This document shows positions 44,536 to 61,772 of a stretch of 64,000 bases of DNA, one piece after another. This DNA comes from Chitinophagales bacterium (GTDB taxonomy: Bacteria; Bacteroidota; Bacteroidia; Chitinophagales; LD1), in assembly GCA_026129525.1 (NCBI GenBank), contig JAHCHW010000003.1, positions 20,764 through 84,763 on the forward strand. Reading direction: 5' to 3'. The notes below the pieces were generated by a model. It searched no databases. It had not been told where the DNA came from and saw only the letters and a program-made list of their open reading frames with translations. Positions within the stretch are counted from its first letter, which is position 1; each line of letters opens with the position of its first letter. Made by a program: the position numbers and the translations under genes.

Positions 44536-45129
44536 ATGAAAGCGCAGGTTAAGAAAGCGGATTTGAAAAAAGCGGAAATACTAAAAGCTGCGGCAAAGGT
44601 ATTTCGCACCAAAGGCTACCATGCCACCCGCATACAAGATGTGGCTGAGGCGCTTGATATGCAGAAAGGTTCGCTTTACTACTACATTGAAACCAAAGAA
44701 GACCTGCTGAAAGGATTGGTGGAAGATATTTTAGAAAAGAGCGTGGAACTGCTCGGTAATATTCAGGATACTACCCATTCGCCATCTGAAAAAGTGAAAT
44801 TGTGCATTGAAAGCCACCTGCGGTTGTTTCATAATAATATTGACGCGTTTGGAGTATTCATTACAGAAGATCTGCACTTCATCAACAAAAATTCAGAGAA
44901 GGATATTTTTCTGTTGATGAAGAATTACGAAAAAGGATGGTTGAAAATTTTCGAAGAAGGCATACAAAGCGGAGAGTTCCGGAAAGAAGTAAACCATAAA
45001 ATGGCGGTGAAAGGAATACTGGGAATGCTCAACTGGAGTTACCGCTGGTATCATGTAAAGGAAGGCTACAGTATTGAGCAGGTAGCCGATATTTTTTCGG
45101 ATTTGATTTTGAACGGAGTAAAGAGATAA
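44536..45129 (+). CDS. TetR/AcrR-family transcriptional regulator
   Basis: 197 aa with an N-terminal HTH (ILKAAAKVFRTKGYHATRIQDVAEALDMQKGSLYYY). Confidence 0.85.
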   Translation: MKAQVKKADLKKAEILKAAAKVFRTKGYHATRIQDVAEALDMQKGSLYYYIETKEDLLKGLVEDILEKSVELLGNIQDTTHSPSEKVKLCIESHLRLFHNNIDAFGVFITEDLHFINKNSEKDIFLLMKNYEKGWLKIFEEGIQSGEFRKEVNHKMAVKGILGMLNWSYRWYHVKEGYSIEQVADIFSDLILNGVKR

Positions 45130-45137
45130 TGAGTACC

Positions 45138-45271
45138 GTCATTGCGAGGATGATTTCAACTTAAAATCAATTAGAACAATCTGACGAAGCAATCTTCCAA
45201 AGTGTATTTCACCAATACAAAAACAAGATTGCTTCGTCATTACGATTAACATTGGGATTCCTCGCAATGAC
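45138..45271. repeat. Nested inverted-repeat element
   Basis: Outer arms GTCATTGCGAGGA (45138-45150) and TCCTCGCAATGAC (45259-45271). Inner arms TGACGAAGCAATCTT (45182-45196) and AAGATTGCTTCGTCA (45225-45239). Confidence 0.7.
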
Positions 45272-45304
45272 AAAACAAAAACACAACAATTACAACATAA
45301 AACT

Positions 45305-46513
45305 ATGAGAGAAGCCTACATTTACGATTCAATACGTACTCCTCGCGGAAGAGGAAAAAAGACCGGATCGCTGTACGAAGTAAAACCCATTGACTTGCTC
45401 GCTACACTGTTCCGTGCCTTACACAAACGCAACGGTGAGTTCGATACTTCAAAAGTGGATGATGTGGTGCTCGGCTGCGTTACCCCTATTGGTGAGCAGG
45501 GAGGCGATATTGCCAAATTTGGTCATGCTATGGCAGGTTGGGATGAATCGGTTTCCGGTATGCAGATAAACCGGTTTTGCTCTTCGGGCTTGGAAGCCAT
45601 CAACCTTGCCGCCATGAAAGTGCGAAGCGGTTGGGAAGAATTGATAGTAGCCGGTGGTGTGGAAAGCATGAGCCGCAATCCTATGGGCAGCGATGGCGGT
45701 GCATGGTATTTAGACCCGCAGGTAAATTCAAAACTCGGTTTTATTCCGCAGGGAATTTCGGCTGATTTAATTGCTACGGTGGAAGGCTTCAGCAGAGAAA
45801 CTGTTGACACCTATGCGCTCAACTCACATCGCAAAGCTGCACATGCGCGCAAGAGCGGATACTTTAAAAATGCCGTTATTCCCGTGCTCGACCAAAATGG
45901 TTTAACCATTTTAGATACCGATGAAACCATCCGCGAAGATGCTTCGATAGAAGCGATGGCGAAGTTGGACCCATCGTTTGCCATGCCGGGCGAGTTTGGT
46001 TTTGATGCGGTGGCGATGTTGAAGTACACTTCGGTTGAAAAAATAAATCACGTGCATACACCCGGCAATTCATCGGGCATTGTAGATGGCGCGGCACTTA
46101 CCTTAGTTGGTTCGAAAGAAATAGGAGAGAAGTTGGGATTAAAACCGCGTGCGCGTATTGTAGCGGCTGCCGTTACTTCTACCGATCCTACTATTATGCT
46201 CACCGGTCCGGCTTTCTCTGCCCGCAAGGCATTGAAAGTGGCAGGCATGACCAACAAAGACATTGACCTTTGGGAAATGAATGAAGCCTTTGCTTCGGCA
46301 GTACTCAAATTTCAACGCGATATGAACATACCTGATGAAGTGTTGAATGTAAACGGAGGCGCTATTGCTATGGGGCACCCGCTGGGCGCCACCGGCTCTA
46401 TGTTGTTGGGAACTGTATTAGATGAATTGGAGCGCGCCAACAAATCAACCGGATTGATTACGCTTTGTGTAGGGGGAGGCATGGGGGTAGCAACTATCAT
46501 AGAGCGTGTGTAA
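45305..46513 (+). CDS. Acetyl-CoA C-acyltransferase (thiolase)
   Basis: 402 aa with the active-site Cys block [11 protein letters not shown] and C-terminal [17 protein letters not shown] and CVGGGMG motifs. Confidence 0.9.
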
Positions 46514-46564
46514 TAAATCCGAAATTCTAAGAACGAAATCCGAAACAAATTTCAATTGAAAAAT

Positions 46565-48691
46565 ATGGCAATACAGTATTCAAAAGACGCTGACAACATA
46601 GTAACCCTTACGTTGGATACACCCAACAAGTCGGCTAATATTTTAAACCTTGCTTTTGGCGAGGCATTTCGTGCAACGCTGAAAAGATTGCAAGAGGAAA
46701 AAGATTCCATCAGCGGCATTATCATCACTTCCAACAAAGAAACTTTTTTTGCCGGAGCGGATATTGATGAAATGTTCAGAGAAACTTCAGCCGAACATTT
46801 CTTTAACCGTGCCGAAGAGTTTAAAGCCGGATTACGCTACATCGAAACACAGGGTAAACCTGTAGTGGCTGCCATTAACGGAACAGCACTGGGTGCCGGT
46901 TTCGAAATTCCGCTGGCTTGTCATTATCGTATTGCTATTGATAATGCCAAAACACAAATAGGGTTGCCCGAAGTAACGCTCGGCTTGTTGCCCGGTGCAG
47001 GCGGAGTAACCCGCGTGGTGCGCTTGCTTGGTTTGCAACCTGCATTGACCTACTTAACCGAGGGTAAGAAAGTAAACCCTAAACAAGCCTTGGCTGACGG
47101 ACTTATTCACGAATTGGCGAAAGACAAAGAGGAGTTGTTAGCAAAAGCAAGAGCATGGGTTAAAGCAAACCCGAAAGCTATACAACCTTGGGATGATAAA
47201 GGCTACAAAATGCCCGGTGGCACACCACTTACGCCTAAGGTGGCATCGGTACTTCCCGTAGCGCCTGCCATGCTGGCAAAGAAAACTTACAACAACTATC
47301 CTGCTCCGCTCTCCATTATGAGCGCTGCGGTAGAGGGCGCCATGGTAGATTTTGACACAGCTACAAGAATTGAATCGCGATACTTTGCCGGATTAGCTAC
47401 GGGCAAAGTGGCGAAAAACATGATTAAAGTTTTCTGGCAGCAGTTGAATGCTATCAATGCCGGCAACTCGCGTCCTAAAACTGCGGTTAAAGGCGATTTT
47501 AAAAAAGTGGGCGTGCTGGGTGCAGGAATGATGGGCAGCGCCATTGCTTATTGTTCTGCAATTAGCGGTATTGAAACCGTGCTTAAAGATGTGAGCGATG
47601 AAGGAGCCGCTAAAGGAAAAGCCTATTCCGAAAATCTGTTGAAGAAGCGCGTAAGCAAAGGCAAAATGACCAAAGAGAAAGCGGAAGAGGTGTTGAACCG
47701 TATTCTTCCTACTTCAAAAGCAGAAGACTTGAAAGACTGCGATTTGATTATTGAAGCCGTATTTGAAAACCGCGAACTGAAAGCCAACGTTACCAAAGAA
47801 GCCGAAGCGCAAATGAACCCAACGGGAATTTTTGCTTCTAACACTTCCACTTTGCCAATAACCGGTTTGGCGGTAGCATCATCGCGCCCCGAAAATTTTA
47901 TCGGGCTGCACTTTTTTTCACCGGCTGATAAAATGCCTTTGGTGGAGATAATTGTTGGCGAAAAAACCAGCGATGAAACACTTGCCCGCGCTTTCGATTT
48001 TGTAAAAGCAATTAAGAAAACTCCGATTGTGGTAAACGATTCTCGCGGTTTTTACACCTCGCGTGTGTTTGCCACGTATGTGCTTGAGGGCATGGCATTG
48101 CTGCACGAAGGCAATAACGCCCGCGCTATTGAAGCAGCCGGATTACAAGCCGGAATGCCCGTAGGCCCATTGGCGCTTACCGATGAGGTTTCGCTTTCGC
48201 TGTTGGCACACATTCGCAAACAAACTATTGAAGATTTGAAAGCAGAAGGGAAGGAAGTGCCCCAACATTCTGCTTATGAAGTAGCCGAAAAAATGCTGAA
48301 CATAAAACGCGCAGGCAAAGCAGCCGGTGCAGGATTTTACGAATATCCGAAAGACGGCAAAAAACATTTGTGGAGCGGATTGAAAGATTTGTTTCCCGAG
48401 CAAAAGCAACTGCCACAAACTGATATGATAGAGCGAATGATGTTTATACAGTGTATTGAAACCGTTCGTTGTTTGGAAGAAAAAGTATTGCGCTCAGTAG
48501 AGGATGCCAACATTGGTTCCATTTTCGGTTGGGGCTTTGCACCGTTTAAAGGCGGCACTTTGCAATACATTAACGACTACGGTGTAAAATCATTTGTGTC
48601 CCGCGCCAAAGAGCTTTACGCTAAATACGGAGAGCGCTTTGCCGTGCCTGCACTACTGGAGCAGATGGCAAAGGAAGGGAAGGAGTTTTGA
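46565..48691 (+). CDS. Bifunctional enoyl-CoA hydratase / 3-hydroxyacyl-CoA dehydrogenase (FadB/FadJ-like)
   Basis: Start set at ATG 46565. Has an N-terminal crotonase fold (FFAGADI, AAINGTALGAGFE) and an NAD-binding GVLGAGMMG plus HFFSPA dehydrogenase blocks. Confidence 0.9.
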   Translation: MAIQYSKDADNIVTLTLDTPNKSANILNLAFGEAFRATLKRLQEEKDSISGIIITSNKETFFAGADIDEMFRETSAEHFFNRAEEFKAGLRYIETQGKPVVAAINGTALGAGFEIPLACHYRIAIDNAKTQIGLPEVTLGLLPGAGGVTRVVRLLGLQPALTYLTEGKKVNPKQALADGLIHELAKDKEELLAKARAWVKANPKAIQPWDDKGYKMPGGTPLTPKVASVLPVAPAMLAKKTYNNYPAPLSIMSAAVEGAMVDFDTATRIESRYFAGLATGKVAKNMIKVFWQQLNAINAGNSRPKTAVKGDFKKVGVLGAGMMGSAIAYCSAISGIETVLKDVSDEGAAKGKAYSENLLKKRVSKGKMTKEKAEEVLNRILPTSKAEDLKDCDLIIEAVFENRELKANVTKEAEAQMNPTGIFASNTSTLPITGLAVASSRPENFIGLHFFSPADKMPLVEIIVGEKTSDETLARAFDFVKAIKKTPIVVNDSRGFYTSRVFATYVLEGMALLHEGNNARAIEAAGLQAGMPVGPLALTDEVSLSLLAHIRKQTIEDLKAEGKEVPQHSAYEVAEKMLNIKRAGKAAGAGFYEYPKDGKKHLWSGLKDLFPEQKQLPQTDMIERMMFIQCIETVRCLEEKVLRSVEDANIGSIFGWGFAPFKGGTLQYINDYGVKSFVSRAKELYAKYGERFAVPALLEQMAKEGKEF

Positions 48692-50232: not shown

Positions 50233-50571
50233 ATGCCGCTATTGCCTAACTATCAGCAAGCCATAATATGATTAGAAAAGCTTAGCAATTACTGTTTATC
50301 AAATGAACATGTTGAAGGTAAACACAAAGCGGCTCTCTTCCTTTCCCGACTTGGAATAACAGCAGAAGATGCGAGTTGGTTGAGAAATGTTATCATGGAT
50401 GCCTTGCCTTTGCATGATGCCGAAGAAAGACATGCGGATAAATACGGGAAGCGTTATACGGTAGATTTTAAGGTTACCCGCAACTCGCGGACAGCAAAAG
50501 TGAGAACTGCATGGATAACAAAGGCAGGCGAAACAGTGCCTCGGCTTACAAGTTGTTATATTGTTTCATAG
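50233..50571 (+). pseudogene. DUF6883-like gene interrupted by an in-frame TGA at codon 13
   Basis: Hand translation from ATG 50233 gives MPLLPNYQQAII*LEKLSNYCLSNEHVEGKHKAALF...TAWITKAGETVPRLTSCYIV. The reading frame and family-like sequence continue across TGA 50269-50271. The ORF track reports only the TTG-initiated 3' part (50380-50571). Confidence 0.55.
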
Positions 50572-50587
50572 TCAATATTTTTACAGC

Positions 50588-50806
50588 ATGGTCAATAAAA
50601 TTTCTCTGCTTGATGTAGTTGCTACAGTAAAGGCATTTCCCGATAAAAATTTACATGCCGGACAAGTAGGTACTGTAGTTGAAATTCTTGCCGAAGGAGT
50701 GTACGAAGTGGAATTTGCAGATAAAAGCGGCAGAGCCATTACAGAATGTGCTATGAAAGAATCGGACTTGCTGCTTCTTCATTACGATGCGTTGAAGGCA
50801 GCCTGA
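50588..50806 (+). CDS. DUF4926-like small protein
   Basis: 72 aa from ATG 50588: LLDVVATVKAFPDKNLHAGQVGTVVEILAEGVYEVEFADKSGR (SH3-like pattern). Typical partner of DUF6883 genes. Confidence 0.6.
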   Translation: MVNKISLLDVVATVKAFPDKNLHAGQVGTVVEILAEGVYEVEFADKSGRAITECAMKESDLLLLHYDALKAA

Positions 50807-50808
50807 CC

Positions 50809-51945
50809 ATGAAAATCATCATCCTCGGTTCAGCTCACCCTCTCCGCGGAGGTCTTGCTTCGTACAACGAGCGTTTGGCGCGTGAGTTTATACAGCAGGG
50901 GCACAGTGTACAGATTTACACTTTCAGTTTGCAGTATCCTTCGTTTTTGTTTCCCGGTACTTCGCAATACAGCGATGCCCCCGCCCCCGATGATTTGTAC
51001 ATACACGAGAAAGTAAATTCCATTAACCCGCTTAACTGGTTCAGTGTTGGAAAAGAAATAGCAAAGTTGAATGCCGATTTACTGATCGTAAAATTCTGGC
51101 TGCCGTTTATGGCACCTTGCCTTGGCACTATTGCACGCATGGTAAAACGAAACGGCAAAACCAAAGTGGTTTCTATTGTTGACAATATCATACCGCACGA
51201 AAAGCGAATGGGGGATAAGGTATTGGCAAAGTATTTTGTGAATTCGGCAGATGCCTTTATTGCCATGAGCGATTCGGTGTTGGAAGATTTAAAGAAGTTC
51301 GATTCGGATAAGCCAAAAGTATTTTCACCGCATCCACTGTTCGATAATTTCGGAGAGGCGGTTAACAAAGCGGAAGCCTATGAAAAACTTGGACTCGAAC
51401 TGAATAGTGAATACATCCTCTTCTTTGGTTTTATACGCGATTACAAAGGGCTTGACTTAGTGCTGAAAGCAATGGCCGATGAGCGCGTTCGGCAATTGAA
51501 TGTAAAGCTGATTGTAGCCGGAGAATTTTACACCGATGCGAAACCGTATTGGGATTTAATTACGCTATTGGATATTGCCGGTAAATTGGTTATGCGTACC
51601 GATTTTATTCCTGACCATGAAGTGAAGTATTATTTCTGCGCGGCAGATTTGGTGGTGCAGCCCTACAAGCACGCTACACAAAGCGGTGTTACGCAAATCT
51701 GCTACCACTTCGACCGCCCCATGCTGGTAACCAATGTAGGCGGCTTGCCCGAAATTGTTCCGCACGGAAAAGTGGGCTATGTGGTAGAGCCTGAGCCACT
51801 CGCCATAGCCGATGCCTTGGTTGATTTTTACCAAGAACACCGCGAGTTTGTAATGCGCGATAACATTAAGTTGGAGAAGAAAAAATACGCATGGAGCGAA
51901 ATGGTGAAACGGATTTTTGAAGTCCAAAATGTAATTCTGTGCTGA
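50809..51945 (+). CDS. Family 4 glycosyltransferase
   Basis: Start set at ATG 50809 (MKIIILGSAHPLRGGLA). The C-terminal half has the GT4 E-x7-E region (QSGVTQICYHFDRPMLVTNVGGLPEIV). Confidence 0.8.
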   Translation: MKIIILGSAHPLRGGLASYNERLAREFIQQGHSVQIYTFSLQYPSFLFPGTSQYSDAPAPDDLYIHEKVNSINPLNWFSVGKEIAKLNADLLIVKFWLPFMAPCLGTIARMVKRNGKTKVVSIVDNIIPHEKRMGDKVLAKYFVNSADAFIAMSDSVLEDLKKFDSDKPKVFSPHPLFDNFGEAVNKAEAYEKLGLELNSEYILFFGFIRDYKGLDLVLKAMADERVRQLNVKLIVAGEFYTDAKPYWDLITLLDIAGKLVMRTDFIPDHEVKYYFCAADLVVQPYKHATQSGVTQICYHFDRPMLVTNVGGLPEIVPHGKVGYVVEPEPLAIADALVDFYQEHREFVMRDNIKLEKKKYAWSEMVKRIFEVQNVILC

Positions 51946-52063
51946 TGCAGTTGATTAGACTGATGACGCGGGTGAAGCTCCGATTGTATTGTAATATTCT
52001 TCTGTAACAGAGCACTTGGCAACAGCCCTTTCCGAATTTCAAATAAAACATCAACTTTGAAAC

Positions 52064-53164
52064 ATGAATTTCATAGACAATGTTCAGATAAAGAATTTTA
52101 AATCCATAAAGCAGCTTTCCTTTACTACTAAACGAGTAAATATTTTTGTAGGAAAGCCAAATGTTGGTAAGTCAAACATTTTAGAGGCGTTATCATTGTT
52201 TTGTGGGGGATACATTTCAAGTGAATATGGTTTTCTTAAACCCTTTATTCGCTTTAATTCTGTTCAGGAGCTATTTCATCGAAAAGATATACGTGAACCT
52301 ATTTTTGTAGATACGGAAATTGGTACTGTTAATCTTGCTTTTTACAATGCAGATACTTATTTTTTTATTATTGATCCGTTAAAAGTACTGGCTAAGCCGG
52401 ATGTAAGTTCCGTTTATTCGGATATAAATGAAACAAAAAGATTTTTTGATGGGAAGTATCAATCTAGTCCATTGCCACCTTTTCATTTAAAACACGCTTT
52501 CCATACTTTCAGCAACGTTATCAACCATAACGCTATGATGAGTATGAAGGATATTTACTTCTATTCGCCAATAAAAAGATACATCTTCAAAGAGTTTAAC
52601 AATCAGGCGACTTCACTGTTTTATCCTCATTCTTTGCTTGTTCCTTACGGTCAAAACATTGTTACTATACTGAATAACGATACGGCTCTGTTTGATTTGT
52701 TTGCTGAAATATTTAAAAATGAGTACAATCTTGATCTTACCATTAAGGACCCTGAGTATGTTTTGGAGATTCTGATAAGAGAAGGTTATCGAACCACTTC
52801 TACACCAATCAATTTAGTGGCAGATACTCTTCAGCGTATTATGTTCTATCTGACAGCAATTAAATCGAACACAGATTCAGTTTTGCTGTTTGAAGAGCCT
52901 GAAGCTCATTCTTTTCCAACGTACACTAATATGTTGGCTGACCATATCGCGAATGACAAAAAAAACCAGTACTTTATAACGACCCACAGCCCTTATTTGC
53001 TTAGAACTTTGCTAGATGAGACACCAAAAGATGAGATAGGTATTTTTATAACAACTTATAAGGATTACCAAACACAACTTCATGCTTTGACAGAAGATGA
53101 TATATCTGAACTATTAGATTATAATATTGACCTCTTCTATAACTACAAAAAGTTTGTTGATTAA
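52064..53164 (+). CDS. ABC/SMC-type (AAA_21/AAA_15-like) ATPase
   Basis: 366 aa. Starts IKNFKSIK, then Walker A GKPNVGKSN, signature-like VADTLQR, Walker B VLLFEEPEAHSFP and H-loop ITTHSP. The gene is visibly AT-rich compared with its flanks. Confidence 0.8.
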   Translation: MNFIDNVQIKNFKSIKQLSFTTKRVNIFVGKPNVGKSNILEALSLFCGGYISSEYGFLKPFIRFNSVQELFHRKDIREPIFVDTEIGTVNLAFYNADTYFFIIDPLKVLAKPDVSSVYSDINETKRFFDGKYQSSPLPPFHLKHAFHTFSNVINHNAMMSMKDIYFYSPIKRYIFKEFNNQATSLFYPHSLLVPYGQNIVTILNNDTALFDLFAEIFKNEYNLDLTIKDPEYVLEILIREGYRTTSTPINLVADTLQRIMFYLTAIKSNTDSVLLFEEPEAHSFPTYTNMLADHIANDKKNQYFITTHSPYLLRTLLDETPKDEIGIFITTYKDYQTQLHALTEDDISELLDYNIDLFYNYKKFVD

Positions 53165-53662
53165 ATGAAGAATTACTTGGTGCCTGAATGCTTTATAGAA
53201 CAAGAATTGTTAATTATTGTCGGCTACCCACTTAAGACTGATATCAACAAAGCAATAGGATGGAGCGGTGTGATTGATAAGATAAAGTTCGATTACAACG
53301 AAAGGTTAGCTATTGGTTGGATCGATCAAGACCCTAACGAAAGGAATAGTAGAGGGAAAGGCTATTATGAATATAGAGAACACTTACTCCCAAAACACAA
53401 TGTAAGACTACTAAAGAAACCTAATAAGCCACACTATCTTATTGAAATTGTTGATGATTTCGAAAAATGGTTTGAGCCTATAGGAAAGCAAAAGAAGGTA
53501 AGAAGAGAAGATTTCGGCATAATACGTAGCCTTAGCTCTTACAAACGCCAGGAGATTCCGCCAAAAGTAAGAAGCTATATGGAAGCAGTAATAAGTGCAA
53601 ATCCGATACCATTCAATTACATCAAGGATGTGATAAGCAAAATAAAAGAAGGAAAAATATAG
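53165..53662 (+). CDS. Small partner protein with possible minimal Toprim/DUF4435-like motifs
   Basis: 165 aa. The ATG directly abuts the ATPase stop. Has N-terminal LVPECFIE (acidic) and IGWIDQDPNE (DxD). The Toprim assignment is tentative. Confidence 0.45.
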   Translation: MKNYLVPECFIEQELLIIVGYPLKTDINKAIGWSGVIDKIKFDYNERLAIGWIDQDPNERNSRGKGYYEYREHLLPKHNVRLLKKPNKPHYLIEIVDDFEKWFEPIGKQKKVRREDFGIIRSLSSYKRQEIPPKVRSYMEAVISANPIPFNYIKDVISKIKEGKI

Positions 53663-53663
53663 C

Positions 53664-54686
53664 ATGATAATTCGCAGCAAAGCTCCCTTACGCCTCGGAC
53701 TTGCCGGTGGCGGCACTGATGTTTCTCCCTATGCCGATATTTACGGAGGCGCCATTTTGAACATTACCATTGGCATGTATGCTTATGCCACCATTAAACC
53801 TTTGTCGGGGAAAAAGATTCGCATAAGGGCGATGGATAGGGGAGAGGAGATTGTATTGGATGCTAAGAAGCAGTTGCCCGTAAACGGTTCATTAGATTTG
53901 GTAAAGGGAGTTTACAACCGTGTGGTGCGCGATTTTACCAAAAAGCCTTTAGCATTTGAGTTAACTACGTATGTGGATGCGCCTCCCGGCTCCGGCTTAG
54001 GTTCGTCTTCTACATTGGTAGTTGCCATATTGGGCGCGTTTGTAGAGTGGCTTAAACTGCCGTTGGGCGAATACGACATTGCTCATTTGGCGTACCGGAT
54101 AGAGCGCGAAGACCTTGCCATGCACGGTGGCCGGCAAGACCAATATGCCGCCACATTCGGTGGGGTAAATTACATGGAGTTTTACGATAACGATAAAGTA
54201 ATTGTAAACCCGCTGCGCGTTCGCGATACATGGATTCACGAGCTGGAAAACAACCTCATCCTTTTTTACACCGAAACTTCGCGCCTTTCATCGGAGATTA
54301 TTAAAAAGCAATCGGAGAATGTAAAGAAAAAGAACGAAAAGAGTATTGAAGCCATGCACAGCTTGAAGGAACAATCGGTGCGTATGAAAGAGGCTTTGCT
54401 GAAAGGCGAAGTGGACCGAATAGGTGAAATACTTCACTATGGCTGGCAGCATAAAAAAGCAATGGCGGAAGGGATTTCCAACCCTCAGTTGGAACAGATA
54501 TATCAAGCAGCTATGAAAGCCGGAGCAACGGGCGGAAAAATTTCAGGAGCAGGCGGTGGCGGGTTTATGTTTTTTTATGCACCCTACAATGCCAAGTTTA
54601 AAGTGGTGGAAGCCTTAAACAAATTGGGCGGGCGGGTAATGCGCTACAACTTTACTCCGCATGGGCTAACAAGCTGGACGATTTAA
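53664..54686 (+). CDS. GHMP-family sugar kinase (heptose/hexose-phosphate kinase-like)
   Basis: 340 aa with the GHMP motif PPGSGLGSSS and a C-terminal ISGAGGGGFMFF. Confidence 0.8.
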   Translation: MIIRSKAPLRLGLAGGGTDVSPYADIYGGAILNITIGMYAYATIKPLSGKKIRIRAMDRGEEIVLDAKKQLPVNGSLDLVKGVYNRVVRDFTKKPLAFELTTYVDAPPGSGLGSSSTLVVAILGAFVEWLKLPLGEYDIAHLAYRIEREDLAMHGGRQDQYAATFGGVNYMEFYDNDKVIVNPLRVRDTWIHELENNLILFYTETSRLSSEIIKKQSENVKKKNEKSIEAMHSLKEQSVRMKEALLKGEVDRIGEILHYGWQHKKAMAEGISNPQLEQIYQAAMKAGATGGKISGAGGGGFMFFYAPYNAKFKVVEALNKLGGRVMRYNFTPHGLTSWTI

Positions 54687-54824: not shown

Positions 54825-55661
54825 ATGCATAAGCCTGAAAGCAACATCTTGAGTGTTGTAAGGGAGATGTGTTTATATTGGAACATCCGCCCCGACCACC
54901 AGAAAAAAACATTACTTCAGTTTCGGAAAATGATCCGTAATGTGAGCACCTGCCCTATAGGCAGTGTAACGCCTGAGCAGCTGCTTGGGTTGTTTCACCG
55001 GTTGCGCGCTGAAAGCACCGGAAGCGATGAAAGTGTAAAGCGGAAATTTGAGTATGTAAAGCGTGTGTTTAAGTATGCTCATGCGCGTGGTTACATAACT
55101 CAGAATCCATGTTTGTTGCTCAAACTGCCTAAGAGCAGGAGGGCGCCCATCATTCACCTGTGCGGTCCTGAACTGAAGCGCCTTGAGCAGCTGCGCGTAT
55201 GCGGCAATTTGCAAAGGGTTAAAGATTGGTTTTTGTTCCAGTGTTATACCGGTTTGAGCTATACCGACTTTGCGCTTTTCAATAAAAGCTGTGTGCAAAG
55301 CATACAGGGTAAATATTATTTGTATGGCGCCCGTACAAAAACGGGTACCGAATACATTGTGCCGTTTACCGATGCCGCGCTAAAAATTGCCGAGCGGTAC
55401 CGGTACCGTTTTTCCTCAAACTGTATTAACACCTACAACCGGGAACTGAAGCAGCTGCAACAATTAGCTGCTATAGAAACGAGGTTAACTACGCATGTGG
55501 CCCGAAGGACCTTTGGGCAAATGATGATAGACCGCGGAGTAGCGCTCGAAGTAGTAAGTAAAATGCTTGGGCATAGTGCAACAAGTATGACTGAGCGCTA
55601 TTACGCGCGTGTAGGAATGAGCCGGGTTATTCAGGATGTGGCTTACCTGGCTGCAGCTTAG
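54825..55661 (+). CDS. Tyrosine site-specific recombinase / integrase (short form)
   Basis: 278 aa with HVARRTFG, LGHSATSMTERYY (H-x2-R ... Y catalytic region) and an SAM-like core-binding region. No long N-terminal arm-binding domain. Confidence 0.85.
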   Translation: MHKPESNILSVVREMCLYWNIRPDHQKKTLLQFRKMIRNVSTCPIGSVTPEQLLGLFHRLRAESTGSDESVKRKFEYVKRVFKYAHARGYITQNPCLLLKLPKSRRAPIIHLCGPELKRLEQLRVCGNLQRVKDWFLFQCYTGLSYTDFALFNKSCVQSIQGKYYLYGARTKTGTEYIVPFTDAALKIAERYRYRFSSNCINTYNRELKQLQQLAAIETRLTTHVARRTFGQMMIDRGVALEVVSKMLGHSATSMTERYYARVGMSRVIQDVAYLAAA

Positions 55662-55695
55662 TTACCGGCTTCGCCAATTTTCTTCAAACTACATT

Positions 55696-56370
55696 TTACC
55701 AGTCGGTATCTGTGGCGTATGGTACAATGAGTTTTACTACTTCTTTTTTATAATTTGAAATAAACTTTTCTAAGCCATTGACAATGTTTCCCGAAAGCCA
55801 TTCCATTGACTTTTTGGGTAAGTTTTCTTTTTTTAATTCATCCCAGGTATAATCCTTGGGTTCTATTGTTCCATCGTATGCGTTTACAATATGTATGATA
55901 ATTTCTTTGGTTCTAAAACGGCATTTGCCTTGTTTAAAACTGAAATTTAAGTTTAGCTCAACAAACGCTCTTCGAAGCATGGTAGAGCTTTTGCCTTCAT
56001 GTCTAATCATCATTTTAGCGACTAATTGTTGCTTTTCATCATCATAGAAAGTAAGGGGCTTGTCGTTTCTATATAATGCTGCGTGAACCATTGCATTGCT
56101 TGTATGGCGGGGAATAAACTCGTCAATCGCAGCAGCATATTGATTGGCTTCTCCTGTAGAGAATAACTGGGGCTGTAGCTGAGCCAATTTTTTTGTTGCA
56201 TTATAGAGAGATTTGGCTGTTATTCCTGAATCGAGTATGATGACAGATTGAATACCGGTTTTATTCGTGATACTGTCTTTGGTTACAACAAGTTGCGAGA
56301 GAGATGTTTTAGGAATCGTGCTAACAGTAAAGAGTGTCAGACTCAGCAGAGTTTTGATAGTTTCTTTCAT
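55696..56370 (-). CDS. Secreted hypothetical protein
   Basis: Start set at ATG 56370 (MKETIKTLLSLTLFTVSTIP signal peptide). 224 aa, no motif recognised. Confidence 0.5.
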   Translation of the reverse strand: MKETIKTLLSLTLFTVSTIPKTSLSQLVVTKDSITNKTGIQSVIILDSGITAKSLYNATKKLAQLQPQLFSTGEANQYAAAIDEFIPRHTSNAMVHAALYRNDKPLTFYDDEKQQLVAKMMIRHEGKSSTMLRRAFVELNLNFSFKQGKCRFRTKEIIIHIVNAYDGTIEPKDYTWDELKKENLPKKSMEWLSGNIVNGLEKFISNYKKEVVKLIVPYATDTDW

Positions 56371-56374
56371 AATG

Positions 56375-56941
56375 TTAAAATTTAAGTGCCAGGCCAATAT
56401 CTTTTGTAGATGGGGAGAAGGTTATGGTGCTTTTTTTTCTCGTTTTATATAAACTATAATCTATGCCTCCCGTGGCCAAAAGCACAATTGATGTAGCTAG
56501 AGAAAAGCCGCTTACTATGCCAATTGATATAGTTGCAGAGATTTTATGGTTTGTATTAATCAGGTTTATGGTAGTCACTCCTGCCGCTATAGAGCCTGCC
56601 ATAAAAATAGAACCTGCTATTAATTTCAACGTTGCACGTTCCTTAAGTGCCGGAAGTGGCATAGTGTCAATTTTGCGAATGCGTGCTGTCGCGTAATCCT
56701 CAAAGCTGTCGCTGTTGTCCGTTTTAGTTTCGGATTTAGGAGGCGCTTTGGGGGGCATAACCGGTTCATCCGATAACTCTTTTTTGAGCAGTTTATTTTT
56801 CAACACATCATATTCAGGCTTATCAATAAGCCCCATGTCAAGCCACTTTTTGTATTGCGACAGCTTAATTTCGGTTGAATCGGTTTGTGCGAAAATTTGT
56901 ATGGCGAAAAGAGCCATAGCGAGGGTCAGGCAGATTTTCAT
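56375..56941 (-). CDS. Exported protein with SHOCT-like motif and C-terminal TM helices
   Basis: 188 aa with a signal peptide, YKKWLDMGLIDKPEYDVLKNKLL (SHOCT-like) and two hydrophobic helices near the C-terminus. Confidence 0.5.
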   Translation of the reverse strand: MKICLTLAMALFAIQIFAQTDSTEIKLSQYKKWLDMGLIDKPEYDVLKNKLLKKELSDEPVMPPKAPPKSETKTDNSDSFEDYATARIRKIDTMPLPALKERATLKLIAGSIFMAGSIAAGVTTINLINTNHKISATISIGIVSGFSLATSIVLLATGGIDYSLYKTRKKSTITFSPSTKDIGLALKF

Positions 56942-56986
56942 AACGCAGAAATTTGATACGGAAAAATAAGATTTTCCGGATAATCG

Positions 56987-57427
56987 TCACTGTTTACGGA
57001 AGAAGAGAATTAGCAGAACTGCTATGATAACAACAATAATTATTGTTACAGCCAGGGCAACATGCAGTAGCTGTGCCTCTTTAATGTTGTTGCGAGTGTT
57101 GTTTTCGTATTGTATCAGTTCATTCCTGATCTTTTCTTGTATAAGTTCTTCCTGCAGTTTGTTATAGGCAAACATGTCTTGAAGTTCATCGGCTTGCCAT
57201 TCCATTTTAAGGGTATGGAATTTTTTTGCCATCTCCGCAGATGATATCGTATTAACCATCTGCTGAAAAAAAACAACCGCTAAGCCTACACCGCTGGCAG
57301 CTGTGCCTACCGTTGCACCTGTAGTTATGCTGGTGGCAATGCCTTGGGCCACACCGGTTAATTGGTCAAAAAATTTTCCGGCCATGGCTAAGTCATAAGC
57401 AACTTGCTCGTTTGTTTTTACCGCCAT
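56987..57427 (-). CDS. Tail-anchored coiled-coil membrane protein
   Basis: Start set at ATG 57427 (MAVKTNEQ). Has a Gly/Ala/Thr-rich segment, a coiled coil and a C-terminal TM helix ALAVTIIIVVIIAVLLILFF. Confidence 0.5.
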   Translation of the reverse strand: MAVKTNEQVAYDLAMAGKFFDQLTGVAQGIATSITTGATVGTAASGVGLAVVFFQQMVNTISSAEMAKKFHTLKMEWQADELQDMFAYNKLQEELIQEKIRNELIQYENNTRNNIKEAQLLHVALAVTIIIVVIIAVLLILFFRKQ

Positions 57428-58326
57428 ATCAACCACATTATAACAACAATAATTATTACAACTACAATCGCCCAAAGAATGGTAATTCGTTTAACAGCTT
57501 CAGATGCTTCGGCTTCCAGTTTTGCCGTAACTGCATCTATTTCCGGCTGCATGGCGTTCATGGCTGTTGTGCCCGGATTGTAGCTGCTAATGTTAGGACC
57601 GTTTCCACCGCAGGCATAAGGGCGCTCGTTAGGCGGAATCACATCGCCATTTTCGTAGTATAAATTGTCGCAAAATTTGCGGGCATCTTCAAAAAAATTA
57701 AGGCCACCTCGATACGGAGAAGAGTAGGAGTATAACATGCGTAATGTTACAGGCTGCAGAGTGCCGTAGTATACACCGTTAATATATTTACTGCTGTAGC
57801 CGGTCCATTTATCGCAGTCGCCTTCGTCTGCTGCTTTCTGTGCCAGTTGTTGTCCAAGAATATTCGCATATGCGTTATATGGATTATTAGGATTAGTACT
57901 TGTATATGCTCCGTAAGATAAGCTACCGCCAGTGGGCGAACAACCAGTATTAGCTTGAAACACCGCATTTCTCCAATCGGGCCAGCCCAATGTGTTGCTG
58001 CCGGGAATTTTACCGATAAGAGGCGCCCTAAAGTATGCAGCAGGCTGTCCTACGACTTGCATTCTGCTTTCGTAATCTGATTTGCTGTTAGGTAAGTTTT
58101 GATATTGATTGGATGTTATCAGGCAATACCCCTTGCACAGCTGCGCCTGGGTGGTACCTGCACCAAACCATTGCTCACAGGCATTGCGGCACCGCCCTTC
58201 GCGGTATTGCGTTTTTTTAGTCGCCATGCAGTAACCTATGTTGCCGTTGCATTTGCACACGTCATTGCACATCGCTTGGTAGTCGAGCGTCAGATTAATT
58301 CCGGAACCGGATTCTCCCCAGGGCAT
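57418..58326 (-). CDS. Cys-rich tail-anchored protein
   Basis: 302 aa. About 13 Cys sit in the soluble part, clustered near the N-terminus (CNDVCKCNGNIGYC, CRNACEQW, CKGYC). Also Asn/Tyr/Gly-rich, with a coiled-coil segment and a C-terminal TM helix. Confidence 0.55.
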   Translation of the reverse strand: MPWGESGSGINLTLDYQAMCNDVCKCNGNIGYCMATKKTQYREGRCRNACEQWFGAGTTQAQLCKGYCLITSNQYQNLPNSKSDYESRMQVVGQPAAYFRAPLIGKIPGSNTLGWPDWRNAVFQANTGCSPTGGSLSYGAYTSTNPNNPYNAYANILGQQLAQKAADEGDCDKWTGYSSKYINGVYYGTLQPVTLRMLYSYSSPYRGGLNFFEDARKFCDNLYYENGDVIPPNERPYACGGNGPNISSYNPGTTAMNAMQPEIDAVTAKLEAEASEAVKRITILWAIVVVIIIVVIMWLIWR

Positions 58327-58330
58327 AGTA

Positions 58331-58531
58331 CTACGCAGCTTTCTTTTTACTGAGCCGCTTTTTTTTCTTTATGTAACCATCAATCATTTCAGCGTCTGTT
58401 TTTTGGCGGTTAGCGGCAGTATAACCGTCCTGTTCATCGGTTAAAAAATCAGAAGCGTTAGCCACTTTATATCCTTTTGAGATAAGTTTTGTATTCTTCT
58501 TTCCGGAGGTTCGTTTTCCACGCTGTGACAT
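58331..58531 (-). CDS. Possible antitoxin partner of BrnT (uncertain start)
   Basis: The 66-aa ORF overlaps brnT by 65 nt. An alternative GTG at 58465, 1 nt after the brnT stop, gives a 44-aa acidic-then-basic peptide. No RHH motif recognised. Confidence 0.3.
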   Translation of the reverse strand: MSQRGKRTSGKKNTKLISKGYKVANASDFLTDEQDGYTAANRQKTDAEMIDGYIKKKKRLSKKKAA

Positions 58532-58766
58532 ACCTTATTTTTTTCTTACGCTTAGTGAAGATAACCGTAAGTATTCTGCCCCGCAAATCGCGACCGACAA
58601 TTTTCCATCTTCTTTCTGCCGGGTGCGGGCTTGGTTTACTAAAAGCATACTTATCATCAAACACATGTTCTATGTCTTTTTGCGAAATATCTCTATCTGC
58701 ATTTATCACATTCAGCTTATACAAATTGCCTGCATCCCATTCAAATTTCAGCGGCATCTTTATCAT
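58467..58766 (-). CDS. brnT: BrnT-family (DUF497) toxin
   Basis: 99 aa starting with FEWDAGN. The KIVGRDLRGRILTVIFTKR...YVTAWKTNLRKEEYKTY tail matches the BrnT pattern. Its ATG abuts the lysozyme stop (TAAATG). Confidence 0.7.
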   Translation of the reverse strand: MIKMPLKFEWDAGNLYKLNVINADRDISQKDIEHVFDDKYAFSKPSPHPAERRWKIVGRDLRGRILTVIFTKRKKKIRYVTAWKTNLRKEEYKTYLKRI

Positions 58767-59309
58767 TTAGGCAAAATTTCCCCCGTTGCCGGTGTACACC
58801 TGTTTAAGCTGTGCCATTGTTTTAGTGGGCTGTCCGTAGGGCGCTCCCGGGAGCGAAGCCCACACTGTGTTCACTTTGGCAATAGCGGTTTCGAATCGCC
58901 CTTCCGTTACATCATTTAAGGCGTTTTTTCTGCGTATCAGTTCAATGGCGCCCTTATCCTGGTTGGCGGGGCTAAAGTCGTTTAAACCAAGCGCCAGGCG
59001 CAAATCGTCCCATGTAGCGGAAAGGAACTGATAAGCGCCTGCGGCAGTGCTGCACAAGCTTCCGGAACAATTAAGTTGGCGAGGGTGGTCGGTGTATGAA
59101 TCGAACAGTTTGCCGGTAAACATAGTGCGGTAGCCGTTGGCTCCATCGGTGCCTTCGGCATATCGGATAGCTTTGAGAAAAGCCTGCACATTATAGTTGG
59201 TGGCGCTCTGCTCTACTAATTGAGTGGCTTGGTAGCGCTCATAGTAAAGCCATCCGGCAAAAACTGCCAGAAAAATAACAATGGCTATGATGATATAGCG
59301 GGGAGTCAT
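58767..59309 (-). CDS. Lambda R-like lytic transglycosylase (GH104) with N-terminal membrane anchor
   Basis: AFLKAIRYAEGTD, FDSYTDHPR, STAAGAYQFLSATWDDLRLALGLNDFSPANQD and VWASLPGAPYGQ align block for block with phage lambda endolysin R. The N-terminal IIIAIVIFLAVFAGWLYY is a signal-anchor-like helix. Confidence 0.9.
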   Translation of the reverse strand: MTPRYIIIAIVIFLAVFAGWLYYERYQATQLVEQSATNYNVQAFLKAIRYAEGTDGANGYRTMFTGKLFDSYTDHPRQLNCSGSLCSTAAGAYQFLSATWDDLRLALGLNDFSPANQDKGAIELIRRKNALNDVTEGRFETAIAKVNTVWASLPGAPYGQPTKTMAQLKQVYTGNGGNFA

Positions 59310-59755
59310 GATACGGGCCCTTTGCTTTTTATAAGCGCATAAGCCTTATCAATTTGCCCTGAGTCGAACGATACACTTGAGCCGATGCCCGTTAAAAAAA
59401 ACTGCACATTATAGCTGGCAGCTACTAACCCCCAGAAGTCCCGTCCCATGGCTACGGTTAGCAGGAAAATATCCTCATCGCTGGCTGCCGTAAAAGTAAA
59501 GTTGGTGAGGTCCGGAAGCTCAAGCAGTTCCGTAGTGGCGCTGTTAATGCCAAAAATACTAACGGGCACTTTATCTGCGAGAGAATCAAAAGCAATTAAA
59601 TTGGTGCCGGGTGCGGGAGTTGTAATTGGCAGCGGAACGAATGTGAGCGATCTGTAGCCCAGTATGCCAAAATTGATGGCATCGCCTATGCCTGTGTTAG
59701 CGGCTTCTAACAGTTCTAAGATTCTGGTAATTTCCGGTTTTATCTGAACTCCCAT
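59306..59755 (-). CDS. Hypothetical soluble beta-rich protein
   Basis: 149 aa with no TM helix and alternating hydrophobic pattern. ATGA overlap with the lysozyme gene. Confidence 0.5.
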   Translation of the reverse strand: MGVQIKPEITRILELLEAANTGIGDAINFGILGYRSLTFVPLPITTPAPGTNLIAFDSLADKVPVSIFGINSATTELLELPDLTNFTFTAASDEDIFLLTVAMGRDFWGLVAASYNVQFFLTGIGSSVSFDSGQIDKAYALIKSKGPVS

Positions 59756-59758
59756 AAA

Positions 59759-59905
59759 TTATATTTGACCTATAAAGCGTTGCGCTAAAAATGCAACGAT
59801 GATGATGATAACAATAACAACAGCCAGCAGCAGCAGGCTTTCCTGTTCGAATCGGATTACAAGGTTTCCGTCCACCGTAAATTTGTCCGGGATAATAGGA
59901 TTCAT
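59759..59905 (-). CDS. 48-aa single-pass membrane peptide
   Basis: Hand-translated: MNPIIPDKFTVDGNLVIRFEQESLLLLAVVIVIIIIVAFLAQRFIGQI. Its ATG overlaps the upstream TGA (ATGA). It fills an otherwise empty gap in the operon. Confidence 0.45.
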   Translation of the reverse strand: MNPIIPDKFTVDGNLVIRFEQESLLLLAVVIVIIIIVAFLAQRFIGQI

Positions 59906-60369
59906 GTTTGCCAGGTAATAGTGGCAGTAATGCCGGTTTCGAAAATGTGATTATTAGAAGGCATACCTGTGTTGCCATTCATTGGCAGCACTGAGTAACC
60001 TTGCCAGGTATTATCATTAACACCTGCATCGGCATTAGGAGCGTTGGCGTATTGGTTAAGCGTGATTTCGGCTACGCCTTTTTTTGCGAGCAATGCGGCT
60101 TCGGTAACAGGTCCGAAAATGCCGTCAATGCTAACACCGAGCCATGCCTGCAGGAGCTTTACTTCGTTACCCGTAACTCCTTTACGCAGGATGCGGTTAA
60201 AATCTAAGTTTTGGGTATTGTCAAAAACGGTCCCGTTGCTTTCAGTGTTGTTTCCGGAAGGGGGTTTTGGACTTTGGTTTTTCTTCCAAAACATGAGCAG
60301 TAAAATGATAACTAGCAGCAAAACGGCTGCTGCTACCCAATACATAGTGTTATCTTTTTCTACTGCCAT
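59902..60369 (-). CDS. Membrane-anchored peptidoglycan-binding (PG_binding_1) protein
   Basis: 155 aa with an N-terminal TM helix and GVTGNEVKLLQAWLGVSIDGIFGPVTEAAL, which matches the PG_binding_1 consensus. Confidence 0.7.
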   Translation of the reverse strand: MAVEKDNTMYWVAAAVLLLVIILLLMFWKKNQSPKPPSGNNTESNGTVFDNTQNLDFNRILRKGVTGNEVKLLQAWLGVSIDGIFGPVTEAALLAKKGVAEITLNQYANAPNADAGVNDNTWQGYSVLPMNGNTGMPSNNHIFETGITATITWQT

Positions 60370-60608
60370 TAGAAACGAATTAGTCCATGATTTCCGGAAG
60401 GCATGCTACCTGTGAATACTGCATTACTTACCGGAAAGCCCCCATCAAAACCGGTGTTTGATTTGCTTTTACATCCGCAGCCGCCACCGCATTTACAGCC
60501 GTTGGGGTCGCGCATTACTTTAATTTGAATAAAGTAAGCAACCACTGCCATTACAATTAGCATGGCGATAACAGTAGCTACAACACGCAGAAATATTTCG
60601 TATAACAT
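60369..60608 (-). CDS. Small membrane protein with CKCGGGCGC motif
   Basis: 79 aa with an N-terminal TM helix and a Cys/Gly cluster. Stop/start overlaps at both ends. Confidence 0.5.
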   Translation of the reverse strand: MLYEIFLRVVATVIAMLIVMAVVAYFIQIKVMRDPNGCKCGGGCGCKSKSNTGFDGGFPVSNAVFTGSMPSGNHGLIRF

Positions 60609-61042
60609 CAGTTCAGATTTAAAGAGTTAAACCGGTCAAAAATCAGCTGAATAATATCGGTGGTTCCCCAGGGTGCTTGGTCAAGCCAGTAGCTTTCTCC
60701 CTGCATATCGGTTTTGAGAGAAACATTCTTTTCCTTCTTATACAGATTACACACTGCCACAAAAATTTTGTCGCTCGATGTGGCGAGTTCATTGTAAGCC
60801 GGCCAGTCGCGGAACAGCGGATTGGTTAAGCCGTAGATGTCGGCAATTAGCCGGTCGGTAATTGACTTTACTTTCGTTTTCTCAGCGTCCGTAAGCGGAT
60901 TGCCGGGATTATCTCCGGGAATGGCCGGGGCGGTAGAATCCTTACCTTTTTGTATAGCATAAAAGTAAGTGACCACCAATAGTATAATCACCACGACAAC
61001 AACCATGATGACTACCCAGTTTTTGGCAAAAAAATCTTTCAT
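60608..61042 (-). CDS. Single-pass membrane protein
   Basis: 144 aa with N-terminal TM helix WVVIMVVVVVIILLVV and a soluble C-terminal domain. Confidence 0.5.
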   Translation of the reverse strand: MKDFFAKNWVVIMVVVVVIILLVVTYFYAIQKGKDSTAPAIPGDNPGNPLTDAEKTKVKSITDRLIADIYGLTNPLFRDWPAYNELATSSDKIFVAVCNLYKKEKNVSLKTDMQGESYWLDQAPWGTTDIIQLIFDRFNSLNLN

Positions 61043-61051
61043 GCAGCATGT

Positions 61052-61474
61052 TTATGATGTTGCGTTAACAAAACTTCCCGTGGTTATTTCCCAGTGCGGT
61101 TTTTTAAAGCTGGCTTTACCGTATTGGGTAATGTCTTCCGCAAATTCATTTACGTTCTTGAGCGTAGGCTCAAGGTTCATTCCTTTCAGCCAGGCTCTGC
61201 CGTAGGCATCGCCATTGGAAATATTCTGCCAGTAAGTGCCTGGAATCAATTGTTGTAATTTAGTGATGGCATCTTCATTAAAACTATCCTTCCATGCGGT
61301 GTAGTTTCCGCTTTTGACTTTCTGAATTGTGCCGGCAGAGGCATACTGATTACCTTTTGCAGAATTGCGGAAAAAGAATGCCCAAACCAGCAGTATAATA
61401 ATGAGGATAACAACAATGGCAACTACAACCTTAGTGGTAGTGCTCCAACCTTCTTTCTTTTTTTCTTCAGCCAT
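61052..61474 (-). CDS. Single-pass membrane protein
   Basis: 140 aa with N-terminal TM helix VVVAIVVILIIILLVWAFFF and a soluble C-terminal domain. Confidence 0.5.
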   Translation of the reverse strand: MAEEKKKEGWSTTTKVVVAIVVILIIILLVWAFFFRNSAKGNQYASAGTIQKVKSGNYTAWKDSFNEDAITKLQQLIPGTYWQNISNGDAYGRAWLKGMNLEPTLKNVNEFAEDITQYGKASFKKPHWEITTGSFVNATS

Positions 61475-61484
61475 GGTAAATTAT

Positions 61485-61772
61485 TTACGGATAAGTAATT
61501 TGCTTGGTGGGCATGTAATTATGGAACGATAGCGGATCGTTATTGCCATGCGTAGGTTGCACTACAAACAACGTAATATGCGGGCTGTTTGGGTTATTGG
61601 CCAGTGTAACTGCATTCGGATAATTTTCTGTAGAAATTGTATCGTCACCATTCTTAACCGGTTTATCTCCGGAGTTACTCGAATTGGAGGCAGGCTGCTG
61701 ATTTTTTTTAGCCAAAGCAATCAACAGCAAAATGATGATGAGAATAACAAAGAGGATTACTGCTTTTTTCAT
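61485..61772 (-). CDS. Single-pass membrane protein
   Basis: 95 aa with N-terminal TM helix AVILFVILIIILLLIALA. Confidence 0.5.
   Translation of the reverse strand: MKKAVILFVILIIILLLIALAKKNQQPASNSSNSGDKPVKNGDDTISTENYPNAVTLANNPNSPHITLFVVQPTHGNNDPLSFHNYMPTKQITYP

Follow-up and report, generated by a model that had tools for sequence, protein, structure and literature searches.

Pairs of an ATP-binding cassette (ABC) ATPase and a nuclease are among the most successful designs of bacterial immunity. ABC ATPases of the AAA15/21 type are coupled to Toprim-type effectors in OLD, Gabija, PARIS, AbiL, and MADS3-4, and in PARIS the ATPase is both sensor and antitoxin, releasing a tRNA-cleaving Toprim effector (PMC11464382). 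The same working mode has been proposed for AbiL and RloAB (PMC13064643), and AAA/TOPRIM_OLD pairs have been validated by NetFlax as antitoxin/toxin pairs (PMC10440598). Here we describe a two-gene cassette of this general kind in a 64,000-nt stretch of contig JAHCHW010000003.1 from the metagenome-assembled genome of a Chitinophagales bacterium (referred to here as the window). The cassette encodes a 366-aa ABC-type ATPase and a 165-aa protein, here called the partner, and a first-pass annotation made from the sequence alone had singled it out as a candidate compact defense system. Our reading, to which we assign a probability of roughly 0.6, is that the cassette is a horizontally acquired module in which the ATPase would serve as sensor and antitoxin and the partner as a small, metal-dependent nuclease-like effector, placing it in the class of PARIS, AbiL, and RloAB. 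PARIS AriAB, lactococcal AbiL, Campylobacter RloAB, MADS Mad3/Mad4, and HEC-01 all share this design. The two genes are as follows:

52064..53164, plus strand: ABC-type ATPase (AAA_15/AAA_21), 366 aa, predicted sensor/antitoxin subunit, with relatives in Pfam, PADLOC, and the Protein Data Bank (PDB)
53165..53662, plus strand: partner, 165 aa, predicted effector/toxin, member of an unannotated family of ∼155 to 190 aa (profile searches and AlphaFold2 [AF2] model)

Similarity of the ATPase to described systems

The ATPase assignment made in the first-pass annotation holds, as both Pfam models score above their gathering cutoffs (AAA_15, PF13175, 69.7 bits against 32.1; AAA_21, PF13304, 42.7 bits against 27). 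Among PADLOC models, AbiLi alone is matched at full length (E = 1.1e-17, residues 3 to 357 on profile positions 1 to 339 of 340). The lowest E value belongs to AriA (6.6e-22), which is matched in two partial stretches, the better one placing residues 4 to 146 on profile positions 3 to 86 of 373. The GajA, Old, NsnB, and HEC-01A models rank below these two (E = 1e-15 to 1e-12 for HEC-01A), and PtuA-type models are also matched. The kinship proposed earlier with the ATPases of OLD, AriA, PtuA, GajA, and AbiL is thus borne out. NCBIfam gave subthreshold, partial matches to the Retron Eco8 effector, MAD3 (7.5e-10), PtuA, and RecF. By profile, the nearest solved structures are the SMC-family ATPase of a type I-A retron (9n69; PMC12475279), Retron Eco8 OLD, PtuA, and RecF, and the RecF/SMC_N N-terminal models are matched as well. 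Conservation of the catalytic motifs was scored over 18 relatives of 36 to 59% identity:

52151..52177, plus strand: Walker A, GKPNVGKSN (residues 30 to 38); G30, P32, N33, G35, K36, S37, and N38 invariant
52883..52918, plus strand: Walker B/D-loop region, LLFEEPEAHSFP (residues 274 to 285); E277, E278, P279, E280, H282, and P285 invariant
52976..52993, plus strand: H-loop, ITTHSP (residues 305 to 310); T307 and H308 invariant, S309 and P310 nearly invariant

The ATPase is probably catalytically active, given that relatives keep the Walker A motif, the EEPE-containing Walker B region, and the H-loop unchanged.

Of the described systems, lactococcal AbiL (AbiLi and AbiLii) and Campylobacter RloAB share with the cassette an order of two genes, with an AAA_21/AAA_15 ATPase first and a smaller effector with acidic motifs second; for AbiL, the likeness extends to the AbiLi model covering the window ATPase end to end. 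Unlike those systems, the partner matches neither AbiLii (PADLOC, E ≤ 10) nor the Pfam RloB model, carries Glu-Cys in place of Glu-Gly in its first motif, and has no fold match. AbiLii, at ∼300 aa, is also longer than the partner. PARIS (AriA with AriB/DUF4435) likewise joins an ABC ATPase to a separate small effector, and AriA gives the best PADLOC E value. However, that match is partial; the window ATPase has an estimated mass of ∼42 kDa against 53 to 55 kDa reported for AriA, and the partner of ∼19 kDa against 35 kDa for AriB, with no DUF4435 match; and the window cassette family was not found on phages or satellites.

HEC-01 and MADS Mad3/Mad4 (an ABC ATPase with a Toprim or DUF4276 protein) follow the same two-gene logic, and the ATPase matches HEC-01A and, partially, MAD3. 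In contrast, the partner matches neither HEC-01B nor DUF4276, and the cassette lies among housekeeping genes, outside any Hma or methylation system. Class 1 OLD nucleases and Gabija GajA belong to the same ATPase superfamily, and the three effector motifs are colinear with their Toprim motifs. Here, however, two split genes take the place of a fused one: the ATPase ends after its ABC domain without a fused Toprim domain, no helicase gene adjoins it, and no UvrD (GajB) partner is present. The cassette differs from Septu and retron PtuAB systems in lacking a Pfam match to an HNH nuclease (PtuB) or reverse transcriptase, any Rfam match, and a structured leader.

The two genes form one mobile unit

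The ATPase query had at least 576 matches in metagenomes, and 80 loci were recovered from these. In 68 of the 69 loci with sufficient room downstream, an ORF (open reading frame) of the small family follows the ATPase gene on the same strand, most commonly with a 4-nt overlap (27 of 68). In the window, the TAA stop of the ATPase gene abuts the ATG of the partner gene (53162-53167). Divergence of the two proteins is correlated (Mantel r = 0.87, a value reached in 0 of 2,000 permutations), and the partner evolves faster, with a mean identity of 29% versus 43% for the ATPase. By obligate linkage, overlap or abutment, and codivergence, the two genes are one unit.

This unit is not tied to any one neighborhood. 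ATPase relatives of ∼40% identity precede overlapping ORFs of 165 to 172 aa beside genes for ribosomal protein S15, methionyl-tRNA synthetase, and an E1 dehydrogenase, and these ORFs align with the window partner. Across the family loci, 142 flanking ORFs match 199 Pfam families without a recurrent neighbor; most are housekeeping genes, and HepT/MNT and Uma2 genes occur a few times. The GC content of the cassette is below that of its flanks in 47 of 48 loci, by a mean of 8.4 percentage points, over flanks ranging from 29% to 71%. The pair is an autonomous cassette that lands singly in unrelated housekeeping neighborhoods.

Three metagenome loci (L143, L158, and L184) have flanks of 65 to 71% GC, and there the cassette is still 8 to 15 points lower; one ATPase relative is named from Chloroherpetonaceae. 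Because of these high-GC hosts and this relative, the cassette family is not confined to Bacteroidota.

Remnants were also encountered. A Parabacteroides distasonis plasmid (NZ_OY725749.1; L091, positions 4043-4519) carries a truncated related ATPase of 158 aa with no partner annotated or found, and an IMG/VR contig (L096, positions 4034-4276) carries an 80-aa remnant of a related ATPase with no partner gene beside it. These truncated ATPases suggest decay of the cassette after acquisition. Apart from an 80-aa ATPase remnant, the scan of viral contigs yielded fused OLD proteins only.

Insertion into a glycan operon

The first-pass annotation had described the cassette as AT-rich DNA wedged into a glycosylation operon between a GT4 glycosyltransferase gene and a GHMP sugar kinase gene. 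HMM (hidden Markov model) scans agree on both neighbors; the kinase is best matched by the NCBIfam model for D-glycero-D-manno-heptose 7-phosphate kinase (E = 2e-135, with a score under the curated cutoff). The edges of the insertion are set by two features:

51946..52063, plus strand: leader of 118 nt, from the GT4 stop to the ATPase start; homology to empty-site genomes stops at the GT4 stop
53660-53666, plus strand: TAG-c-ATG junction from the partner gene to the heptose kinase gene, a single base between stop and start; empty-site homology restarts at the kinase ATG

At 0.339, the GC content of the cassette (52064-53662) compares with 0.449 for the GT4 gene and 0.470 for the kinase gene, and is the minimum among 1,249 sliding 1.6-kb segments of the 64 kb (mean, 0.432; standard deviation, 0.023; a departure of ∼4 standard deviations). 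GC content at third codon positions (GC3) is 0.31 in the ATPase gene and 0.36 in the partner gene, versus 0.50 and 0.51 in the flanking genes. For the opening 81 nt of the ATPase gene, the 21 G+C counted earlier by hand (0.259) proved exact, as did the tight packing described at both gene junctions. The accompanying estimate that the flanks are nearly half G+C was somewhat high, the real values being 0.45 to 0.47, but the flanks are indeed well above the cassette.

For comparison of the insertion site, 80 loci were recovered with the kinase as query, of which ∼50 keep the GT4 gene directly upstream. In these syntenic relatives, the GT4-kinase gap is typically 37 to 120 nt, and the junction is empty in the closest ones (kinases 94, 91, and 90% identical). 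Because the site is empty in relatives and both GC and GC3 are low, the cassette is an insertion foreign to the glycan operon, as first proposed. These comparisons also bear on the alternative that the pair belongs functionally to the heptose/glycan operon, acting for example in glycan regulation or export. In its favor are the shared strand, the close packing with the GT4 and kinase genes, and the occupation of the same junction in four lineages. The pair is absent from this site in ∼50 relatives that keep the same operon, the closest included; the family occurs in unrelated contexts elsewhere; and its GC and GC3 are foreign. The empty sites effectively refute operon membership, and we give this alternative almost no weight. 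Conservation of the pair within the glycan operon, which the first-pass annotation had named as grounds for refuting its proposal, is not what the relatives show.

The four lineages with a cassette at this junction are the window, L008/L034, L188/L189, and L001; the small gene runs up to or into the start of the kinase gene in L008, L188, and L001. Between these cassettes, the ATPases are 54 to 59% and the small proteins 47 to 62% identical, against 82 to 87% for the flanks, and the L008 ATPase is nearer to copies in other contexts (72% identity to L187 and 68% to L004). The divergence of cassettes between similar flanks, together with the affinity of the L008 ATPase to copies elsewhere, argues for repeated acquisition or allele replacement at the junction rather than simple vertical descent. 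Cargo of a transposon or insertion sequence was considered and rejected, as no repeats bracketing the cassette were found and its edges coincide with the stop codon of the GT4 gene and the start codon of the kinase gene.

Other cargo occupies the same gap in further loci (L045, L047, L056, L057, L059, and L066). L057 (4711-5440) holds a UPF0175 and DUF3368 toxin-antitoxin-like pair of low GC content, and L059 (2590-7001) an insert of 4.4 kb encoding a 678-aa AAA_15/AAA_21 protein bearing C-terminal VEG, DKD, and EIEN Toprim-like motifs. Proteins with PKD/CBM96 domains secreted by the type IX secretion system are found in the gaps of other genomes. The GT4-kinase junction is a general variable spot.

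The leader gave no Rfam match, and its predicted folding is not better than that of shuffled sequences (z = −0.14); a retron-like noncoding RNA in the leader is ruled out on these two grounds. Promoter-like and terminator-like sites showed no excess at the cassette. Because no such signal stands out and a single base separates the partner stop codon from the kinase ATG, the cassette in this genome probably rides on operon transcription.

The partner defines an unannotated family

Searches of the partner against Pfam, NCBIfam, PADLOC (up to E ≤ 10), and PHROG models gave zero matches, and PDB sequences returned nothing meaningful. A word-indexed search retrieved 3 close relatives only. An exhaustive HMMER search with a profile of these three recovered 159 representative clusters, nearly all of 155 to 190 aa, and a 136-member profile recovered 284 clusters from a 90% clustered set. 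The best 120 of these 284 are all without a Pfam domain and are all named "hypothetical protein"; among their sources are isolates of Pedobacter, Lacibacter, Foetidibacter, Sphingobacterium, and Chitinophaga. The family is therefore real but missing from the Pfam, NCBIfam, PADLOC, and PHROG models, and describing the pair as an undescribed or unusual variant was fair, since no library tested has a model for the partner. One further match lies in P0187, a protein of 4,799 aa whose residues 1144 to 1210 match positions 81 to 147 of the partner profile (E = 6.9e-6); the stretch may derive from the C-terminal half of the partner by fusion or domestication, or the match may be chance.

An AF2 model of the partner built from the 136-sequence alignment is of high confidence (pLDDT [predicted local distance difference test], 94.7; pTM [predicted template modeling score], 0.88); a model from 3 sequences only was unusable (pLDDT, 44). 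Residue conservation, counted over 253 members, identifies three motifs:

53177..53200, plus strand: motif I, LVPECFIE; Glu8 directly after predicted strand 1, Cys9, and an acidic residue at +4 (conservation and AF2 model)
53312..53332, plus strand: motif II, IGWIDQD; DxD ending predicted strand 49-54 (conservation and hhalign)
53459..53470, plus strand: motif III, FEKW; acidic residue opening helix 99-109, after strand 90-95 (conservation and AF2 model)

All peptide motifs quoted in the first-pass annotation are present in the translated ORFs, and the two acidic ones it had noted in the partner, LVPECFIE and the DxD in IGWIDQDPNE, are nearly invariant across the 253 relatives. In motif I, E8 is kept in 249 members, C9 in 241, and D/E12 in 247. 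The counts for motif II are 245 (G51), 252 (D54), and 246 (D56). Position 100 in motif III is acidic in every member (E in 236, D in 17), and W/F102 is found in 233. In 7 members, Gly replaces C9, which gives the canonical Toprim hhhEGxxD.

Is the partner a Toprim protein?

Toprim domains are defined by a Glu in the loop joining strand 1 to helix 1 and by a DxD after strand 3 (PMC12065111). The partner has both: in the model, E8 lies between a strand at residues 5 to 7 and a helix at residues 10 to 19, and D54 and D56 stand at the end of their predicted strand. Its three motifs (E-[GC]-x-x-[DE], hhhDxD, and hE-x-hh) are colinear with VEG, DxD, and E-x-EN of OLD and GajA, and in a relaxed hhalign alignment motif III lines up with the "EIEN/EVEN" of OLD. 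The acidic set E8, D/E12, D54, D56, and E/D100 is predicted to sit on strand ends like a Toprim metal site. For hhalign, OLD and GajA Toprim regions were gathered from plasmids and viral contigs. The DxD strand is the only partner segment aligned to OLD Toprim, and the partner scored a 6.9% probability against a small OLD-Toprim alignment; since GajA against OLD, the positive control, scored 1.9%, this test was powerless.

Several results weigh against our reading of the cassette. None of the Toprim-type HMMs matches the partner significantly. Searching the PDB with the full-length family profile gave only marginal matches to the C-terminal helix (CopM) and no Toprim protein, and the profile of the N-terminal core gave nothing. 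Foldseek searches with the confident model (pLDDT 95) found no significant neighbor in the PDB (best E = 0.13; TM score, 0.29); the top 50 were without any Toprim protein, with only weak CheY-like matches over ∼60 residues, and BFVD was likewise without a significant neighbor. The model therefore did not superpose on solved Toprim domains, whose three-layer alpha/beta fold has the sheet order 2-1-3-4. Weak matches to RloB and DUF4276, which were seen in a first sample of the family, were absent from a second sample of 117 members and from the consensus sequences. With respect to context, the neighborhoods of the family are housekeeping genes rather than defense islands, and an intact copy, looked for in phage collections, plasmid collections, and IMG/VR, was not found. 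HEC-01, a system of the same design, did not protect against the phages with which it was challenged (10.1101/2024.01.29.577857).

The weak matches deserve a brief account. RloB and DUF4276 were the most frequent weak Pfam matches in the first sample (4 of 136 members each); weak PADLOC matches were led by AbiLii, PDC-M03B, and HEC-01B, with AbiLii reached by 2 of 136 members at 0.002 and HEC-01B by one family member. In the second sample, a clearly spurious family, OB_RNR_1st, matched 23 related members. Because the counts were unreplicated and OB_RNR_1st demonstrates spurious matching in 23 members, they were dropped as evidence of homology. Family consensus sequences gave nothing relevant in Pfam, neither DUF4435 nor AriB was matched by the partner or was among the top families of the 136 scanned members, and a plasmid search for labeled RloB or DUF4276 partners turned up no systems other than Gabija and fused OLD.

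On balance, we find a Toprim-like active-site architecture plausible, with odds close to even; that the partner belongs to the Toprim superfamily is not demonstrated. The assignment of the small protein as Toprim/DUF4435/RloB-like in the first-pass annotation is accordingly at most weakly supported, with no match by HMM, PDB profile, or Foldseek.

A different possibility is that the partner has a new fold and is a nonnuclease adaptor, regulator, or other enzyme, with the ATPase itself acting on DNA or another substrate in a housekeeping or repair role like that of RecF or SMC proteins. The lack of any structural or HMM neighbor despite a confident model would fit this, as would the RecF/SMC_N matches of the ATPase; the predicted secondary structure, moreover, is missing the canonical second Toprim strand between motifs I and II. 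However, near-invariance of five acidic positions at the ends of strands is what a metal-dependent active site typically shows, and the members with the canonical Toprim motif I speak against a fold outside Toprim. The RecF/SMC similarity is confined to the shared Walker A region, and a housekeeping repair function fits poorly with an accessory, patchy cassette of low GC content. We regard this possibility as distinctly improbable.

Proposed mode of action

If the cassette works as its described counterparts do, an oligomer of the ATPase would keep the small protein inactive, combining the functions of antitoxin and sensor. Sensing of a phage-derived trigger, or loss of the ATPase, would free the effector, which might then cut nucleic acid through its acidic metal site (tRNA, as AriB does, or DNA). 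Such cleavage would halt translation or replication, and infection would be aborted. The genetic architecture is consistent with a type II toxin-antitoxin or abortive-infection module.

The same architecture could belong to a purely selfish toxin-antitoxin addiction module, serving postsegregational killing or genomic stabilization with no antiphage role. Solitary insertions among housekeeping genes rather than in defense islands suit this explanation, as does the tight two-gene overlap; NetFlax has validated AAA/TOPRIM_OLD toxin-antitoxin pairs (PMC10440598), HEC-01 gave no defense against tested phages (10.1101/2024.01.29.577857), and other toxin-antitoxin-like pairs occur in the same operon or junction (DUF6883/DUF4926 in the window and UPF0175/DUF3368 in L057). 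In contrast, every characterized member of the named ATPase class acts in phage defense (PMC11464382, PMC13064643), and diverged alleles at one hot spot with fast effector evolution fit an arms race better. Toxin-antitoxin function and abortive-infection defense are also not mutually exclusive, as PARIS does both. A purely selfish module is therefore unlikely in our estimate, and a sensor ATPase with a nuclease-like effector of the PARIS/AbiL/RloAB class is the reading we prefer.

Other features of the window

The same operon carries small ORFs upstream of the cassette. At 50380-50806, between the GT2 and GT4 genes, lie overlapping ORFs matching DUF6883 (63 aa; only the C-terminal part of the profile, positions 49 to 109 of 110) and DUF4926 (81 aa). 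In related kinase loci, the GT2-GT4 gap is usually a few to a few tens of bases, and neither ORF was found by tblastn in 80 such loci. The pair looks like a second, independent insertion of a toxin-antitoxin-like small module in the operon. The mechanical GT4 ORF (50746-51945) overlaps the DUF4926 ORF; the true start is likely ATG 50809 (MKIIILGSAH...), which aligns with relatives.

Downstream (54825-62119 and beyond), a tyrosine integrase gene (278 aa) directly follows the kinase gene, and then comes a block of minus-strand genes that encode small membrane-anchored proteins and, by sequence reading only, a lysozyme-like protein (58767-59309). No homologue of the integrase-block genes was found in close relatives, and there is no tRNA gene near the block. 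In close relatives and L008, the kinase gene is followed by SIS isomerase and nucleotidyltransferase genes; in L013, an ORF resembling HAD phosphatases also follows it, the L013 assignments coming from ORF reading and not from HMM matches. It appears that the heptose operon is interrupted here by an integrated element, which may be a prophage.

Ahead of the glycan genes, positions 44536-48691 hold a fatty-acid beta-oxidation set of a TetR-type regulator (by sequence reading), a thiolase, and a FadB-like multifunctional enzyme. Because a tblastn search of the 7 kb lying upstream in the ten closest kinase loci (L011 to L014, L016 to L018, L020, L021, and L083) did not find this set, the wider synteny differs as well.

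Implications

Current defense catalogues were built mostly from Proteobacteria and Firmicutes. The cassette family comprises at least 576 metagenome ATPase matches and several hundred partner sequence clusters, with named sources mainly in Bacteroidota. Tools relying on Pfam, NCBIfam, PADLOC 2.0, or PHROGs models would miss the system, because all four fail on the effector.

With somewhat less than even confidence, we go further and suggest that the partner may found an unrecognized family of reduced effectors, either the smallest known Toprim-derived nuclease, with its Glu-Cys motif, or a new acidic-site fold. Together with the minimal ABC ATPase, it may form a widespread defense or abortive-infection system, mostly in Bacteroidota so far, that persists as strongly diverged alleles at recurrent chromosomal hot spots and has no dedicated mobility gene. 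The hot spot calls for explanation in its own right, as equally diverged alleles lie between two 85%-identical core genes with neither an integrase nor repeats. If active, the cassette would offer a compact, easily cloned system of ∼1.6 kb and a minimal effector with which to study how ABC ATPases restrain and release toxins. Its interest would grow if the effector has a novel fold or if the module is a widespread defense system of Bacteroidota.

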